DNA from: a virus
Lineage: Duplodnaviria; Heunggongvirae; Uroviricota; Caudoviricetes
DNA: 15,214 bases
IMG/VR virus record: IMGVR_UViG_3300001688_000696
Strand: one strand, 5' to 3'
Both the position numbers and the translations under genes were made by a program. The notes beneath the pieces were generated by a model that did not search any database, was not told the DNA's origin, and saw only the letters and a list, made by a program, of their open reading frames with translations. Positions 8,397 to 14,451 of the stretch are shown piece after piece (position 1 is the first letter of the stretch; the number at the start of each line of letters is the position of its first letter).

Positions 8397-9890
8397 GTGG
8401 ACATCTTCGTTGGACGCAAAAGAGAACTGGAAACCCTGGATGAACTCTGGCGAAGTCCGAAGGCTGAATTTCTGGTGCTATACGGCCGGCGGCGGGTAGG
8501 GAAAACCCGCTTGCTGACGCACTGGTTTCAGAACAAAAAGGAACCCGTGCGGGTAATCTATTGGGCTGCTGACCAGGACAATAAAGAGTCGCATCTCCGC
8601 CAGTTTTCAGCCGAAATTTTCAAGTGTGCTTTCCCACGAGCTTCCATCCCGGCGAGCTTTTCCTACGCCGATTGGAACGAAATATGGGAACAGCTTGGCG
8701 AGATGGCAAAAAATGAACGGCTGGTGGTGATTATTGATGAGTTTCCTTACGTGCTGGCTTCTAACCCGGTTGTCGCCAGCCAGCTACAGCGGGCATGGGA
8801 TAGGGTTTTGGAGAAAACCCACATCATGCTGTGCCTGTCCGGTTCGCATCTCGGCATGATGCAGAAGGAATTTATCGACAGCAAAGCACCGCTGTACGGC
8901 CGGGCGACTCGAATAATGAAGCTGGCACAGCTTCCATTTGGCATTACGAAGCAGTATTTCCCGAACTATTCAGCCGAGGAGCGGGTGCGCCTGTATTCGG
9001 TTTTTGGCGGCGTTCCTCATTACTGGAAACAGATTGACCAGTCTATCGCTGTGATAGAAAATGTTGACCGGCTGGTGCTGTCGGGTGGGCTGTTGCAAAA
9101 CGAAGCCATCACCATGCTGCATGAGTCTGTGAAAGAACCTCAAAACTATGTGTCTATCCTGAAGGCGATTGCCACCGGGAACAGGACGCCAAAGGAAATC
9201 GAATCCCATACAGGCATCCGGGTGCAGCACCTTACGCAGTACCTTAGCAATCTCAATGGCCTCGGCTTCGTGACGCGCCGGGTGCCGGTGACAGGTACGG
9301 CGACCTCCCGGCTGGGGCGCTATGCGATTACCGACCCGTTTTTGCGGTTTTACTTCCGCTTTGTGGCTTCACGACTGTCACAAATCGAGTTAGGGCAGAC
9401 GTTGCAGGTCTCCGAAGAACTGCGCAGGCATTGGGTAGATTTCATCGGTACGCATACATGGGAAGAACTTAGTCAGGAATGGTTGATTCGTGCCAGCAAC
9501 CAATCTGCCATCCCAGTTTTCCCGGACGAAATCGGTGGCACGTGGACAAATGATGCGCAGGTGGATGTGGCTGGCATCAATTACATGACGAAAGAAATCG
9601 TGCTAGGGGAGTGCAAGTGGACGCTGCAACGCGAAAAAGCCAATGTACTGGAAAGTCTCGTGGAAGGGAAAACCGCTCGTGTTCTGCCAAAACAAGGCAC
9701 TTGGAAAGTCTTTTATCTCGGTTTTTCTAAAGAGGGCTGGAACGAGAACGCTCAGGCTTATGCCGAGCGGCTAAACGCTGAAGTCCAGAAAAAGAACGGC
9801 GGGCGGTTTAGTGAGTTCCCGTGGAAAATTGTAGGGATGCGCCTGCTGTCATTGGCTGACGTGGATAGGGATTTGGCACTCTGGTCGTGA
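8397..9890 (+). CDS. Archaeal-type ATPase (ATPase_2/STAND-like) with wHTH, DUF234 and a PD-(D/E)XK-like C-terminus
   Basis: Walker A GRRRVGKT (aa 30-37), Walker B VIIDEFPY, LCLSGS sensor, YAITDPFLRFYFRFV (DUF234-like), VDVAG...LGECKW. GTG start after AGGAAGGAG. Confidence 0.88.
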   Translation: MDIFVGRKRELETLDELWRSPKAEFLVLYGRRRVGKTRLLTHWFQNKKEPVRVIYWAADQDNKESHLRQFSAEIFKCAFPRASIPASFSYADWNEIWEQLGEMAKNERLVVIIDEFPYVLASNPVVASQLQRAWDRVLEKTHIMLCLSGSHLGMMQKEFIDSKAPLYGRATRIMKLAQLPFGITKQYFPNYSAEERVRLYSVFGGVPHYWKQIDQSIAVIENVDRLVLSGGLLQNEAITMLHESVKEPQNYVSILKAIATGNRTPKEIESHTGIRVQHLTQYLSNLNGLGFVTRRVPVTGTATSRLGRYAITDPFLRFYFRFVASRLSQIELGQTLQVSEELRRHWVDFIGTHTWEELSQEWLIRASNQSAIPVFPDEIGGTWTNDAQVDVAGINYMTKEIVLGECKWTLQREKANVLESLVEGKTARVLPKQGTWKVFYLGFSKEGWNENAQAYAERLNAEVQKKNGGRFSEFPWKIVGMRLLSLADVDRDLALWS

Positions 9891-9950
9891 GCGATTGCAA
9901 AAATGCAGGAATTTGTCCCGACGAATTTTCAAAAAAGTGGCTTTGGCCTA

Positions 9951-9986
9951 TTGACAAATTATTCCAATAGTGATATAATATTTATA
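9951..9986 (+). promoter_or_regulatory. sigma70-type promoter of the tRNA operon
   Basis: Perfect TTGACA-N17-TATAAT followed by ATTTATA. Confidence 0.85.
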
Positions 9987-10018
9987 CTAAACGAAACTGC
10001 GAACGAGGATTTGTAACG

Positions 10019-10111
10019 ATGACGACCAGAACCACTACCATGACCAAAACGACAAAGCGAATGATAAAACATTCGTCTGCCGTTACGCGTCTTGGGGTTC
10101 TGGCAATGTAA
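10019..10111 (+). CDS. Attenuator leader peptide (30 aa, MTTRTTTMTKTTKRMIKHSSAVTRLGVLAM)
   Basis: GAGGA RBS at 10005-10009. Eight Thr in the first 12 codons. Lies between the promoter and a terminator that precedes the tRNA array. Below the ORF-track size cutoff. Confidence 0.75.
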   Translation: MTTRTTTMTKTTKRMIKHSSAVTRLGVLAM

Positions 10112-10154
10112 TCTAATCCAACCAACTAGCAAATTCCCGAAACCGTATCGGCAG
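10077..10154 (+). promoter_or_regulatory. Antiterminator helix
   Basis: CTGCCGTTACG (10077-10087) pairs 10/11 with CGTATCGGCAG (10144-10154), which includes most of the terminator's left arm. Confidence 0.65.
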
Positions 10155-10186
10155 CTCCCCTGAACTCCGATACGGTTTTTCTTTTC
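10140..10186 (+). terminator. Attenuator intrinsic terminator
   Basis: AAACCGTATCGG/CCGATACGGTTT 12-bp stem, then TTCTTTTC, located between the promoter and the first tRNA. Confidence 0.85.
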
Positions 10187-10217
10187 TGCACCTTAATAAC
10201 CGAATATGCCACCCCAC

Positions 10218-10289
10218 GCCGGTATAGTTCAACCAGCAGAACGGCTGATTCGTAATCAGCAGGTGAGGGTGCAAGTCCCTCTATCGGCT
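10218..10289 (+). tRNA. tRNA-Thr(CGT)
   Basis: Acceptor GCCGGTA/TATCGGC; anticodon arm GCTGA-TTCGTAA-TCAGC; T-arm GAGGG-TGCAAGT-CCCTC (non-canonical loop); no CCA. Confidence 0.85.
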
Positions 10290-10291
10290 TT

Positions 10292-10368
10292 GGCTGTGGC
10301 ACAAAATGCTGATGGAAAATGCCGTGCGGCATTGGCATGGCAATCCGTATCCAACATTCTCCGCAGCT
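10292..10368 (+). ncRNA. Unidentified structured RNA or degenerate tRNA
   Basis: tRNA-sized spacer closed by GGCTGTGG/CCGCAGCT with an internal AATGCC-GTGC-GGCATT hairpin; no T-loop or anticodon arm recognisable. Confidence 0.3.
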
Positions 10369-10389
10369 TGCGTGTTACAGCTTATCTCC

Positions 10390-10462
10390 GGGCGGTTAGC
10401 TCAATTGGTAGAGCAGCGGACTTTTAATCCGAAGGCTGAGGATTCGAGTTCCTCACCGCCCA
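10390..10462 (+). tRNA. tRNA-Lys(TTT)
   Basis: GGGCGGT/ACCGCCC acceptor; loop CTTTTAA; GTTCGAG-like T-loop. Confidence 0.93.
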
Positions 10463-10468
10463 CCTTAT

Positions 10469-10541
10469 CCCGCCATAGCTCAATTGGTAGAGCGACGGAC
10501 TCTTAATCCGGAGGCTTCAGGTTCAAGTCCTGATGGCGGGA
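10469..10541 (+). tRNA. tRNA-Lys(CTT)
   Basis: CCCGCCA/TGGCGGG acceptor; loop CTCTTAA; GGTTCAAGTCC. Confidence 0.93.
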
Positions 10542-10552
10542 CTCCCCAACTT

Positions 10553-10623
10553 GGGTGGGTAGTCTAAAGGTAAAACAGCGGTTTCATAAGCCGCATTTGT
10601 GAGTTCGAGCCTCACCCCACCTA
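10553..10623 (+). tRNA. tRNA-Met(CAT), probably elongator
   Basis: GGGTGGG/CCCACCT acceptor; GCGGT-TTCATAA-GCCGC; GTGAG-TTCGAGC-CTCAC. Lacks the C1:A72 mismatch and triple G-C anticodon stem of fMet. Confidence 0.8.
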
Positions 10624-10634
10624 CTATTTCTTGT

Positions 10635-10706
10635 GCCTCTGTAGGTTAGCAGGAAAACCGCTTTCGTGGTAGGAAAGAATCGTGGGTTCGAGTCCCACCG
10701 GAGGCT
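10635..10706 (+). tRNA. tRNA-Thr(GGT)
   Basis: GCCTCTG/CGGAGGC acceptor; CTTTC-GTGGTAG-GAAAG; GTGGG-TTCGAGT-CCCAC. Confidence 0.85.
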
Positions 10707-10712
10707 CTGCAT

Positions 10713-10785
10713 GGATGCGTAGCTCAGTGGTTAGAGCGAGCGGCTCATAACCGTCTGGTCGGTGGTTCGAGTCCACCCGCATCCA
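10713..10785 (+). tRNA. tRNA with CAT anticodon, probably Ile2 (lysidine, reads AUA)
   Basis: GGATGCG/CGCATCC acceptor. The AGCTCAGTGGTTAGAGC...CGGCTCATAACCGTC.GGTCG body resembles bacterial tRNA-Ile2 as I recall it; Met identity is not excluded. Confidence 0.85.
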
Positions 10786-10789
10786 CAAT

Positions 10790-10900
10790 GCTGACACAGC
10801 AGGCAGAAATGCTTAAATGTTTGTTTCGTGCAGGATGTGCGCAGTGGGGCTGGTGTGGGTGTCAGCCGCCCGATTGCGGGTTCGACCCCCGCCCCACACG
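10790..10900 (+). ncRNA. Unidentified RNA with a tRNA-like T-arm and acceptor-like helix
   Basis: GCGGG-TTCGACC-CCCGC T-arm; GTGTGGG(10853)/CCCACAC(10893) helix; GCTGACAC(10790)/GTGTCAGC(10859) helix; AGGCA-GAAA-TGCTT hairpin. No normal D or anticodon arm. Confidence 0.45.
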
Positions 10901-10905
10901 AATAT

Positions 10906-10977
10906 GCCGCTGTAGTTTAATCAGCAGAACGCTCGGCTTGTACCCGAGGGGTGCGGATGCAAGTTCCGCCAGCGGCT
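10906..10977 (+). tRNA. tRNA-Thr(TGT)
   Basis: GCCGCTG/CAGCGGC acceptor; CTCGG-CTTGTAC-CCGAG; GCGGA-TGCAAGT-TCCGC (non-canonical loop). Confidence 0.85.
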
Positions 10978-10982
10978 CTTTT

Positions 10983-11054
10983 GCCCCTATATTTTAATGG
11001 ATAGAAAAACGGTCTTCTAAACCGGGAGTCCTCGTTCGAATCGAGGTGGGGGCA
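10983..11054 (+). tRNA. tRNA-Arg(TCT)
   Basis: GCCCCTA/TGGGGGC acceptor; loop CTTCTAA; CCTCG-TTCGAAT-CGAGG. Confidence 0.88.
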
Positions 11055-11120
11055 CCTTCTTCCAATCCTTTTGCCGAAACGAATTGCACTTAGCAATCAC
11101 AGGTCGCAGCAAAAGGAAAA

Positions 11121-11273
11121 ATGGAAGAAAATTTGCGAGAGGAGGCAATTCGCGAATACCTGCGAGAAAACTTGCGGGTGTCAGCGTCGTTAGACGCCGG
11201 TAGGGAATCAGAAAGCAGTCTCTACCTGTACGTCAATGTCTCCGTTAAGTTGGAAGACGAGGTCATTTTTTGA
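11121..11273 (+). CDS. Small hypothetical protein (50 aa) inside the tRNA array
   Basis: AAAAGGA RBS; MEENLREEAIREYLRENLRVSASLDAGRESESSLYLYVNVSVKLEDEVIF*; fills a gap between tRNAs. Not in the ORF track. Confidence 0.6.
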   Translation: MEENLREEAIREYLRENLRVSASLDAGRESESSLYLYVNVSVKLEDEVIF

Positions 11274-11348
11274 CACAACGGATTACATCAGTGTCTAAAA
11301 AACTGTCCGGCGAGTACCTCGGCTTACCGGACAGCCGTCCAACCTTTT

Positions 11349-11423
11349 GCCCCCATAGTTTAATGGATAAAACGGCTGGCTTCGAACCAGCGAATCCGGG
11401 TTCGACTCCTGGTGGGGGTGCCA
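11349..11423 (+). tRNA. tRNA-Arg(TCG)
   Basis: GCCCCCA/TGGGGGT acceptor; GCTGG-CTTCGAA-CCAGC; the only tRNA here with an encoded CCA. Confidence 0.92.
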
Positions 11424-11439
11424 TATTCGGTTATGATTT

Positions 11440-11512
11440 GCTCTGGTCGTCTAAATGGATAAGACGCCTTTCTCCTAAAAAGGAAATCCGGGTTCAAGTC
11501 CCGGCCGGAGCT
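11440..11512 (+). tRNA. tRNA-Arg(CCT)
   Basis: GCTCTGG/CCGGAGC acceptor; CCTTT-CTCCTAA-AAAGG; CCGGG-TTCAAGT-CCCGG. Confidence 0.9.
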
Positions 11513-11545: not shown

Positions 11546-11983
11546 ATGATTGACTACGAGTTTACCGTTGACCGGCGAACTAACAAGGTCAATGTATTGA
11601 ATGTGGACGAGGGAGATTACACACTTGTCCATGATGCAGAAGCGTACCAGCTCTGGAAGCGAGCTGGCAGCCATTATTACACTGGTCAGGGGAAGCCGTT
11701 TTTATATGCTAATTATTCCAATCTTCCCGGCCCCGCATCTTATTCCATTCATAACCAAAAACCTATTGCGAGATTGTTTATGACCAACACACCTGCCGAA
11801 ATTCATCCTGCCAACTCGCTTGTTGTCCAAAATGCAACCGGCCCGAGCGCCAATGATTACGAGGTTATCCGCCGTTTTCTGGTTGACTGGCACGCCTGCA
11901 AAAGCTGGCAGCAATTTGCCAACGAACAAAGAATGGGGATTGCGAAGGGATTGTCAAACTGGTTGCCAAGCATTTCTGCCTGA
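11546..11983 (+). CDS. Hypothetical protein (145 aa), last gene of the tRNA operon
   Basis: ATG 11546 after AGGGAGAG; the ORF-track extension to 11270 runs through two tRNAs. Confidence 0.7.
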   Translation: MIDYEFTVDRRTNKVNVLNVDEGDYTLVHDAEAYQLWKRAGSHYYTGQGKPFLYANYSNLPGPASYSIHNQKPIARLFMTNTPAEIHPANSLVVQNATGPSANDYEVIRRFLVDWHACKSWQQFANEQRMGIAKGLSNWLPSISA

Positions 11984-12066
11984 AATTGCGCTTTGACTAC
12001 ATTTTAGCATTTTTTGTAGCATTTCTGCCTGAAATTGCGCTTTGACTACATTTTAGCATTTTTTGT
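11969..12066. repeat. Perfect 49-bp tandem duplication
   Basis: AGCATTTCTGCCTGAAATTGCGCTTTGACTACATTTTAGCATTTTTTGT at 11969-12017 and 12018-12066. Confidence 0.95.
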
Positions 12067-12128: not shown

Positions 12129-12164
12129 TTGACAATAAATAGGTTATTTGCTATAATATATATA
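12129..12164 (+). promoter_or_regulatory. sigma70-type promoter with TATA extension
   Basis: Perfect TTGACA-N17-TATAAT-ATATATA. Confidence 0.85.
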
Positions 12165-12327: not shown

Positions 12328-14451
12328 ATGAATTACGCTAACAATAATGAGATTAACGCCGTACTGCTGGAACGCAAGTGCAAGCTGATTGTTTTTGCTG
12401 AAAACCAGAGCGCGGACAACGCGCGCTACGTCATTGCCCTGATGCGAAACATCGAGAGCCTCGGTTTCACGTTTTCGCAATCTCTGTTCGACGCACTGCG
12501 CTACCAGCCAGTGCGTGAAATAACGTCATATTACGAATTCATTCTCCCCATCTTAAGGCGGATGGTGGGCGCTAATGTCGCTCACAAACCGTTTTATCTG
12601 AATTTTCCACGCCAGGTCGCTAAAATGAGCGACTTAGAGTGGATTCTTAACGCCCTGTTCCACTATTGGACGCTGGGCGAATGGAAGCCCGATTACGTCA
12701 AGGAATCCCGTTTTCCATTAATGGACGGGAAGCCGCAGGTGCGGGTGATTGACCTCGGCACGGTCGAGGAGTTTAACGCCCTGTTCGCCAACATGATGGC
12801 AGCCAGCGGTTCGCTGTCGGAAAACGACCGCAAATTGCTGGTCTGGTACATCAAAAATTCCAACCCAGATACGCTGGCGGCTTACCTGCCGGCCTCGATT
12901 CCTTCAAAGGAAACACTGGCGGTGGTCGCCGCCACGATTCTGGCGAATCACAAGTCGCACGCCGACTTGTTGAAGAGGTATTTTAAGACGGCGACGGACG
13001 TTCTCCGTTTGGTCGTCTCGATGTCGGGCGGCGATATTTCACTGGCGGAAAATACTCACTTCCGCAACTTCACCCGCGCCGAGCGCCGCTTCCTGTTGGG
13101 TCTGCTGGAAACCGACACGCATCTTGCGGAAAACATGGCGATGCACGCGGGTCTCTGGATTCGCCTGGGCGAAAAGCTGCATCCGGGCGAATATGCCAAT
13201 ATGTACCCTCGTGCATATGAGGCTTTCAGCAAGATTCGCAACGGCAAGGTACAGACCTTCAACAGCCGGGTGACTGCCGCTTGGGAAAGCGGCGACGTGG
13301 AAGGCACGCTGAACCTGTTGAAGGGGCGCGGCGGCGAGCTGGTACGCAGACTGGATTCCATGCTGCGTTCAGCGCCGGGCTATCATGCGGAAATCCTGTC
13401 CGCATTCGAGACGGTTTCCGACAGCGTGGCTACGCCGGTTCTGCTTCAAACGTTGGCGCACTTCGAACATCGCAACGAAGAACGCCAGTATCGCGCCTTC
13501 TTCCCGAAGGGGAATCTGGCGAAGGCCTACGTGGTTGAAAACAACCTGCCGCCGATGCGGGACGACATTCGGCTTGCGGCTGTTTCGGCACTCCGCAGGA
13601 CGCTGCTGCGCCGGTTTGCTGGCAAGCCTGCTCTGGGGAAGGTGTACATCGCCCCGGAACTGGCTGGCGTTCTGGTGCCGCTGGCACAGCGTTCTGCAAG
13701 CAATGCGCTGAAGTCCTTTGCTCGCGGCAGCCGCTTCGCTATCGGCGAAGCGGCAAAGGTCGTGCGTGCCTTCATCCACTGGCGCAATCCAGACCCAGAC
13801 AAACTGACCGATGTTGACCTGTCGGTCATGCTATACGACGAGAACTGGCAGTTCCGCGAACAGGTGTCGTATACGAACATCCGTTCACGCGAGTATCCGG
13901 TGTATCACAGCGGCGATGTTCGAAACGCGCCGGAAGGTGCAAGCGAATTCATTGACCTGGATGTAGACGCTCTACGGGAAGCAGGAGTGCGCTATGCAAT
14001 TTTCTCCGTGCATTCCTATTCCGAGCAGCCATTCAATGTAATCCCGGAATGCTTTTTCGGCTGGATGGAGCGGGAATTCCCGCAGTCTGGCGAGATTTAC
14101 GAACCGAACACGGTCGTAAACAAGTCTGACCTGACAGCTAATACGCGCATCGCTGTTCCTGTCGTCCTTGACCTCTTTGAACGCCAGTGTATCTGGACAG
14201 ACCTGGCTTTGAAGAAATGGCCGGGGTGGTACAACAACATCCATGCCAATGGCGAAAATCTACTACGGATGGCGGTTGGTATCATGGATACGCCGCGTCC
14301 AAACCTATACGACCTGTTTTTGCTGCACGTGGAAGCACGTGGAGGCGAACTCGTTGAAAACCGGGAAAATGCCGAGCTGGCCATCGCTTTGGATGGCGAG
14401 GCTGACATCACCCCGTTCGATACAGAGGTCATTCTGTTGGAATATCTGTAA
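12328..14451 (+). CDS. TerD-family protein with a long helical (TROVE/Ro-like) N-terminal region, 707 aa
   Basis: C-terminal DVDLSVMLYD...VSY...YHSGDVRNAPEGASEFIDLD is TerD-like. The N-terminal KTATDVLRL, RAERRFLL, WIRLGEKLHPGEY and GELVRRLDSML motifs match, from memory, the SCO0854/MXAN_6230-related family, here without the RING finger. AAGGGG RBS. The TROVE relationship is tentative. Confidence 0.7.
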   Translation: MNYANNNEINAVLLERKCKLIVFAENQSADNARYVIALMRNIESLGFTFSQSLFDALRYQPVREITSYYEFILPILRRMVGANVAHKPFYLNFPRQVAKMSDLEWILNALFHYWTLGEWKPDYVKESRFPLMDGKPQVRVIDLGTVEEFNALFANMMAASGSLSENDRKLLVWYIKNSNPDTLAAYLPASIPSKETLAVVAATILANHKSHADLLKRYFKTATDVLRLVVSMSGGDISLAENTHFRNFTRAERRFLLGLLETDTHLAENMAMHAGLWIRLGEKLHPGEYANMYPRAYEAFSKIRNGKVQTFNSRVTAAWESGDVEGTLNLLKGRGGELVRRLDSMLRSAPGYHAEILSAFETVSDSVATPVLLQTLAHFEHRNEERQYRAFFPKGNLAKAYVVENNLPPMRDDIRLAAVSALRRTLLRRFAGKPALGKVYIAPELAGVLVPLAQRSASNALKSFARGSRFAIGEAAKVVRAFIHWRNPDPDKLTDVDLSVMLYDENWQFREQVSYTNIRSREYPVYHSGDVRNAPEGASEFIDLDVDALREAGVRYAIFSVHSYSEQPFNVIPECFFGWMEREFPQSGEIYEPNTVVNKSDLTANTRIAVPVVLDLFERQCIWTDLALKKWPGWYNNIHANGENLLRMAVGIMDTPRPNLYDLFLLHVEARGGELVENRENAELAIALDGEADITPFDTEVILLEYL

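Follow-up and report, generated by a model that had tools for sequence, protein, structure and literature searches.

The leader that precedes ten tRNA genes in a large uncultured ("giant mobile") element of anaerobic-digester (biogas reactor) metagenomes is likely to be a leader-peptide attenuator of transcription like those of trp and thr, operated by the translating ribosome, which would gate the expression of the whole tRNA array. Its RNA contains the mutually exclusive 1:2, 2:3 and 3:4 helices of such a switch, and the reading frame that it carries begins with a run of codons that belong to the decoding repertoire of the downstream tRNAs. The element probably makes the array tRNAs only when ribosomes decode the cognate codons slowly. 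Leader-peptide attenuation is textbook knowledge for amino-acid biosynthesis operons and for one synthetase operon; what would be new here is that the RNA logic of an attenuator is wired to tRNA genes, and that the leader samples the very isoacceptors encoded downstream. A full-text literature search yielded no publication in which tRNA genes are under attenuation by a leader peptide.

Gene order around the leader

The window, i.e. the whole stretch of DNA that was analysed (15,214 nucleotides), derives from an element whose proteins are carried on one contig of 399,701 bases. Promoter, Shine-Dalgarno sequence, open reading frame, terminator and tRNA genes follow each other in this order, all within 270 nt (Table 1). 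The promoter matches the consensus at 12 of 12 positions and predicts a transcription start at around 9986-9988. Directly 3' of it lies a short ORF with a ribosome-binding site, the translation of which is predicted, and between this ORF and the tRNA genes sits an intrinsic terminator, the stem of which ends 39 nt before the first tRNA. Both the short translatable frame and the interposed terminator are what an attenuator calls for. Further downstream in the window a tandem direct repeat with a unit of ~47 nt was seen at 11970-12066, and a second consensus TTGACA/TATAAT promoter at 12130-12160 precedes a gene for a 707-aa TerD-like protein (12328-14451).

Table 1. Positions of the leader, its pairing regions and the adjoining genes in the window
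Feature	Position	Strand	Description
ATPase gene	8397-9890		upstream of the leader
Sigma-70 type promoter	9951-9979	+	TTGACA, 17-nt spacer, TATAAT; TG one base before the -10 hexamer
Shine-Dalgarno GAGGA	10005-10009	+	9 nt before the leader ATG; read from the sequence
Leader ORF	10019-10111	+	30 codons and TAA
Region 1	10026-10054	+	5' strand of the anti-antiterminator hairpin, within the putative sensing codons 3-12; from best folds
Apical hairpin	10057-10076	+	fits both the 1:2 and the 2:3 state; abuts the antiterminator
Region 2	10077-10103	+	3' strand of the 1:2 hairpin; the first 21 nt (10077-97) double as antiterminator 5' strand
Region 3	10135-10154	+	antiterminator 3' strand; 10140-51 doubles as terminator 5' arm
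Region 4	10167-10190	+	terminator 3' arm (10167-78), then T-rich tract (10179-10190)
Ten tRNA genes	10218-11512	+	found with ARAGORN and Rfam

Mutually exclusive helices

An earlier note on this DNA had proposed a set of competing helices in the leader RNA, and all of them are present at the positions given there. The terminator stem (10140-10151/10167-10178) consists of 12 of 12 Watson-Crick pairs followed by the anticipated T-rich tract, and the hairpin has a folding energy of -19.0 kcal/mol. The antiterminator, placed by the note at 10077-87/10144-54, forms 10 of 11 pairs in that interval and proves to be longer than first claimed, with 18 bp between 10077-97 and 10135-54, including 2 G-U pairs and three single mismatches. 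Of the 12 nucleotides in the terminator 5' arm, this extended form occupies 10, and the two helices share a strand. The 1:2 hairpin (10026-10103) is long and imperfect, has an energy of -30.6 kcal/mol and pairs 15 of the 21 antiterminator nucleotides; the helix proposed between CCAGAACC (10026-33) and GGTTCTGG (10096-103) holds at 8 of 8 pairs.

Two further upstream helices invoked as competitors stood only in part. GTAACG (10013-18) is complementary to CGTTAC (10081-86) at all 6 positions, but the optimal structure of the free leader lacks this helix: there 10081-84 pairs with 10048-51 instead of GTAACG, and the helix was seen only in some full-length constrained folds. The hairpin 10057-63/10070-76 does exist (6 Watson-Crick pairs and 1 G-U) but is no rival of the antiterminator: both can be present at once, with the hairpin directly abutting the antiterminator, and the hairpin also caps the 1:2 hairpin. 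The free fold contains it, as do the folds for a ribosome stalled with its P site on codons 1-9.

The amount of structure exceeds chance. The leader RNA folds with -59.3 kcal/mol, compared with -38.9 +/- 3.6 kcal/mol in shuffles (z -5.6), and the strongest duplex that the leader can form with the region of the terminator 5' arm reaches -25.1 kcal/mol, compared with -12.2 +/- 2.5 kcal/mol in dinucleotide shuffles of the upstream region (n=2000), only one of which was as good. When the duplex was restricted to the strict arm 10140-54, an equally good one arose in 19 of 2000 shuffles. The 1:2 helix on its own is not clearly above chance, with 124 of 2000 shuffles as good.

Folding under a translating ribosome

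Folding with ribosome-footprint constraints, which the earlier note had suggested, yielded a switch with three states. The nascent RNA was folded to 10166, a point at which the 3' arm of the terminator is not yet out, and the footprint from P-12 to P+14 was masked for each P-site codon in turn. In the RNA free of ribosomes the best fold is the 1:2 hairpin and the antiterminator is absent (ensemble probability 0.00), in keeping with the claim that the terminator forms when the leader is not translated. A stalled ribosome that lies on the upstream strand of the anti-antiterminator reverses this: with the P site on codons 1-13 the probability of the antiterminator rises from 0.00 to 0.94-0.99, dropping at codons 14-15, and the helix is part of the best fold for P-site codons 1-14. 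The central proposition, that a stall in the early codons makes 10077-87 available for pairing with the terminator 5' arm, is therefore borne out in constrained folding. Once the P site is on codons 16-27, the ribosome covers region 2 and the probability is back at 0.00, while on codons 28-30 it takes values of 0.2-0.98, depending on the 5' end. The ensemble profile for codons 1-27 and for the state without a ribosome was stable across three footprint sizes and two assumed 5' ends.

The same behaviour can be expressed as the cost of freeing the terminator arm, which increases from 4.3 kcal/mol in the free RNA, where the 5' UTR is able to pair weakly with the arm, to about 9-10 kcal/mol with a ribosome on codons 2-8. 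The ribosome-dependent gain in arm sequestration amounts to +4.6 kcal/mol, against 0.02 +/- 1.15 in shuffles, and none of 400 shuffles reaches +4.6. This statistic, the difference in cost with and without a ribosome, replaced an earlier shuffle criterion which the real sequence fails because of the weak pairing of the 5' UTR with the terminator arm in the free RNA. E. coli thrL served as positive control, and the identical computation gave 0.0 kcal/mol without a ribosome, 6.5-13.4 kcal/mol on codons 1-11 and 0-4 kcal/mol on codons 12-21. By this computed measure, the profile of the leader has the shape and the size of a proven attenuator.

In the full-length RNA at equilibrium the terminator is preferred in every state, and so the switch must act kinetically. 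The notion that full translation favours termination holds for a ribosome on codons 16-27 but fails at the stop codon, where the antiterminator is allowed again: once the stop codon is in the A site, the footprint extends over about 10094-10120 and no longer includes 10077-87. Shut-off under full translation consequently depends on timing or on refolding of the 1:2 hairpin, and needs one of three routes, namely a ribosome over codons 16-27 at the moment of decision, rapid release followed by 1:2 refolding, or steric hindrance.

Leader codons and the tRNA array

The array encodes, in this order, tRNAs with the anticodons Thr CGT, Lys TTT, Lys CTT, CAT, Thr GGT, CAT, Thr TGT, Arg TCT, Arg TCG and Arg CCT. 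Codons 1-17 of the leader come only from the 12 codons that the array reads, whereas codons 18-30 are mostly not readable by it. The run comprises Met, Thr of three isoacceptor classes, Arg AGA, Lys AAA/AAG, Arg CGA and ATA, for which the readers are the Thr CGT/GGT/TGT, Lys TTT/CTT and Arg TCT/TCG tRNAs and the two CAT tRNAs; AGG is the sole array codon without an occurrence in the main leader. Since the array-readable set accounts for 16.8% of the codons in the ORFs of the window, 16 consecutive ones would be expected by chance with a probability of ~4e-13. The run of regulatory codons thus matches the supply provided by the genes under control, where the supply is one of tRNA, not of amino acid. 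Both CAT tRNAs resemble elongators (with base 1 paired and the GGG/CCC anticodon stem absent), and one of them may be a lysidine tRNA-Ile2 that reads ATA.

The codon run ends at codon 17 and the structural stall window at P-site codons 13-15 (A-site codons 14-16), so that the identity of the codons and the position of the helices, which are independent features, place the boundary at almost the same point. In the folding model, the tail of 13 non-cognate codons behind the run would serve to carry the ribosome across region 2.

This agreement bears on the view that the leader is a general translation sensor without codon specificity, in which any ribosome on the leader would open the 1:2 hairpin and allow antitermination, a ribosome waiting at the stop codon included, and the array would be transcribed under active translation and switched off when ribosomes idle. 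The re-allowed antiterminator at P-site codons 28-30 and its absence from the RNA without a ribosome are what such a sensor predicts. It would leave unexplained both the restriction of codons 1-17 to the array-read set and the continuation of the ORF for 13 more codons over region 2, precisely where a ribosome abolishes the antiterminator, and we consider it unlikely.

Evidence from RNA libraries

The stretch was found in six digester metatranscriptome runs, four of which were examined. These RNA data are assembled contigs, which carry neither expression levels nor true ends and may include DNA carry-over. In two runs, from separate studies, 9813-9954 is uncovered and single contigs start at 10010 and 10009, cross the terminator and extend into the tRNAs (to 10474 and 10761, respectively). 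In the third run contig cover spans from the ATPase gene to 10693, and in the fourth one contig ends at 10122 beside adapter and another starts at 10213, neither of which is readable as an RNA end; the same applies to the limits of the uncovered parts. The terminator is bridged by contigs in three of the four runs. Taken together, the RNA contigs are compatible with an active promoter and some read-through, without being proof of either.

The contig starts at 10009/10010 lie after the Shine-Dalgarno sequence and, as true 5' ends, would remove it from the transcript. Inspection of the sequence upstream of 10009/10010 found no sigma-70-like -10 hexamer, and these starts, like the end at 10122, may be processing or decay ends. 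The latter position falls ~11 nt beyond the base of the 1:2 hairpin.

A simpler account of the locus would have a leaky constitutive terminator and incidental structure, with the ORF untranslated, the tRNA output set by promoter strength and terminator leak, and the hairpins there to stabilise or process the RNA or to insulate it from the ATPase gene upstream. The translation and the regulation of the leader are things that we infer, and several observations sit comfortably with such an account: contig X16 runs from the ATPase gene across the leader, contig X13 ends at 10122, the two contig starts would deprive the transcript of its Shine-Dalgarno sequence, and at equilibrium all states fold into the terminator. 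We nevertheless regard it as decidedly unlikely, as it does not explain a perfect promoter immediately ahead of a strong terminator, a codon run that matches the array, a switch statistic that no shuffle attains, or a profile like that of thrL.

Relatives and RNA families

Five copies of the locus from different samples are >99% identical across 6.5 kb, with a single SNP at 10212 and 0 changes in 9891-10211. At such divergence the switch would be expected to be unchanged, and with known copies this similar covariation gives no information on the helices. In one strain variant (L212), five changes cluster at 11028-11039, within the tRNA-Arg(TCT) T arm, and the remainder is nearly identical; the cluster could stem from recombination with another tRNA or from an assembly artefact.

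Searches for more distant relatives brought up none. The exact leader 27-mer has no match in viral contigs, a longer degenerate leader pattern found nothing in genome contigs, and the 458-aa neighbour protein has no relative beyond its own cluster. Searches with the two neighbouring proteins, the ATPase and the TerD-like one, returned host-like genes only, which are at most 62% identical and have no tRNA arrays nearby, and BLAST against phages and plasmids returned generic tRNA similarity only. When metagenome and viral contigs were scanned with a degenerate leader pattern, the matches were rejected, being Thr-rich low-complexity ORFs with no likeness to the leader and no comparable array. An ORF of 20 codons that consists of only Met, Thr, Trp and Lys codons was seen, identical, in seven viral contigs (L168, L171, L181, L185, L195, L207 and L209); no tRNA gene occurs in the 2.5 kb scanned downstream of it, or up to the end of the locus if nearer.

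Rfam models for T-box, Thr_leader or any other leader family gave no match in 9900-10260 at E-values up to 10, and the T-box model gave none at its gathering threshold either. The leader is hence not a family member by descent; it would work like the class. The Rfam result also speaks to a mechanism in which the RNA itself would sense uncharged tRNA or a protein and so govern the same terminator/antiterminator pair (antitermination of the T-box kind or mediated by a protein), with no translating ribosome involved. That the controlled genes are tRNAs is suggestive in this respect, given that T-box RNAs bind tRNA, and a terminator/antiterminator pair is the read-out stage there too. Besides the lack of any T-box or other Rfam match, however, one specifier codon would be unable to serve ten tRNAs, and Shine-Dalgarno sequence, ATG and an in-frame codon run all indicate translation, which makes direct sensing highly improbable.

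Proposed mechanism

Our preferred model is the ribosome-mediated attenuator. Transcription would start at the consensus promoter, and the RNA would first form the 1:2 hairpin, whereupon a ribosome would translate the 30-codon leader. Slow decoding of any Thr, Lys, Arg, Met or AUA codon at positions 2-15 would leave the ribosome sitting on region 1 and set free the first part of region 2 (10077-97), which would pair with 10135-54 upon the emergence of the latter and so hold the terminator 5' arm, allowing RNA polymerase to continue into the tRNA array. With fast decoding, the ribosome would be over region 2 (codons 16-27) as regions 3 and 4 emerge, and the terminator would form; if the leader is not translated at all, the 1:2 hairpin would stay in place and the terminator would likewise form. 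The outcome would be negative feedback on the supply of precisely those tRNAs that the array encodes.

The timing could be set by polymerase pausing after the 1:2 hairpin, with release by the first ribosome, which would leave polymerase and ribosome ~60-75 nt each to the decision point. With distances this similar, we infer that the ribosome would be on region 2 in time. The mechanism cannot distinguish a shortage of tRNA from a shortage of amino acid. It might also be put to use as a counter-defence sensor, in which spare Thr, Lys, Arg, Met and Ile2 tRNA genes stay silent until the host tRNAs are destroyed or depleted (e.g. by anticodon nucleases) and leader ribosomes stall; this extension is a tentative and rather doubtful one.

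Further features of the array

The array contains several other features that are noteworthy in their own right. A tRNA-like minihelix at 10853-10900, in the 119-nt gap between a tRNA(CAT) and tRNA-Thr(TGT), has an acceptor stem and a T arm and lacks D and anticodon arms; it scores 24.1 bits with the tRNA model, for which the gathering score is 29. tRNA-Thr(CGT) (10218-10289) and tRNA-Thr(TGT) (10906-10978) both have the T-loop TGCAAGT, with a G in place of the nearly universal U55. The 292-nt spacer at 11057-11348, which directly precedes tRNA-Arg(TCG) and tRNA-Arg(CCT), is strongly structured (z -6.1) and includes an ORF of 50 codons (11122-11274) with the Arg codons CGA, CGC, CGA, CGG and AGG, followed by a hairpin at 11303-11335. 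As it includes AGG, the array codon that the main leader lacks, this spacer may be a second control unit.

Implications

Should the model be correct, mobile elements and phages would be able to regulate tRNA genes by a codon-by-codon measurement of decoding speed, and the leader would amount to a compact, programmable sensor of tRNA supply. It would bear on the question of why tRNA arrays are found in large phages and plasmids, and on when these arrays are expressed. The structural result renders the idea testable, as it identifies both the strands to mutate and the window of codons in which a stall would be effective.

Comparison with known systems

The closest parallel is the thr attenuator of E. 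coli, which likewise has a promoter, a Thr-rich short ORF and an intrinsic terminator in this order and alternates between 1:2, 2:3 and 3:4 helices. The two have no similarity in sequence or by covariance model, and they differ in what they control, amino-acid biosynthesis genes in the thr operon and tRNA genes here, as well as in the breadth of the leader, which in the present case covers four amino acids and nine or ten isoacceptors. They also differ in geometry: the thrL stop codon abuts region 2, whereas here it lies 22 nt past the core of region 2 and a terminating ribosome leaves that region uncovered. The T-box riboswitch would share with the present leader the sensing of tRNA status through a choice between terminator and antiterminator, but it binds one uncharged tRNA directly and requires no translation, and the leader has no T-box motif or model match.

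Mixed-codon leaders have precedents in the ilvGMEDA and ilvBN leaders of enterobacteria, which are multivalent and contain codons for several amino acids, so that a shortage of any of them relieves termination. In contrast to those, the mix found here mirrors the downstream anticodons isoacceptor by isoacceptor (ACG, ACC/ACT, ACA, AAA, AAG, AGA, CGA, ATG and ATA). The application of attenuation to the translation machinery instead of a biosynthetic pathway has a precedent as well, in pheM-pheST, where a leader peptide controls a tRNA synthetase operon. Whereas the product of that operon is a protein enzyme, the products here are the tRNAs themselves, and the feedback would act directly on decoding speed.
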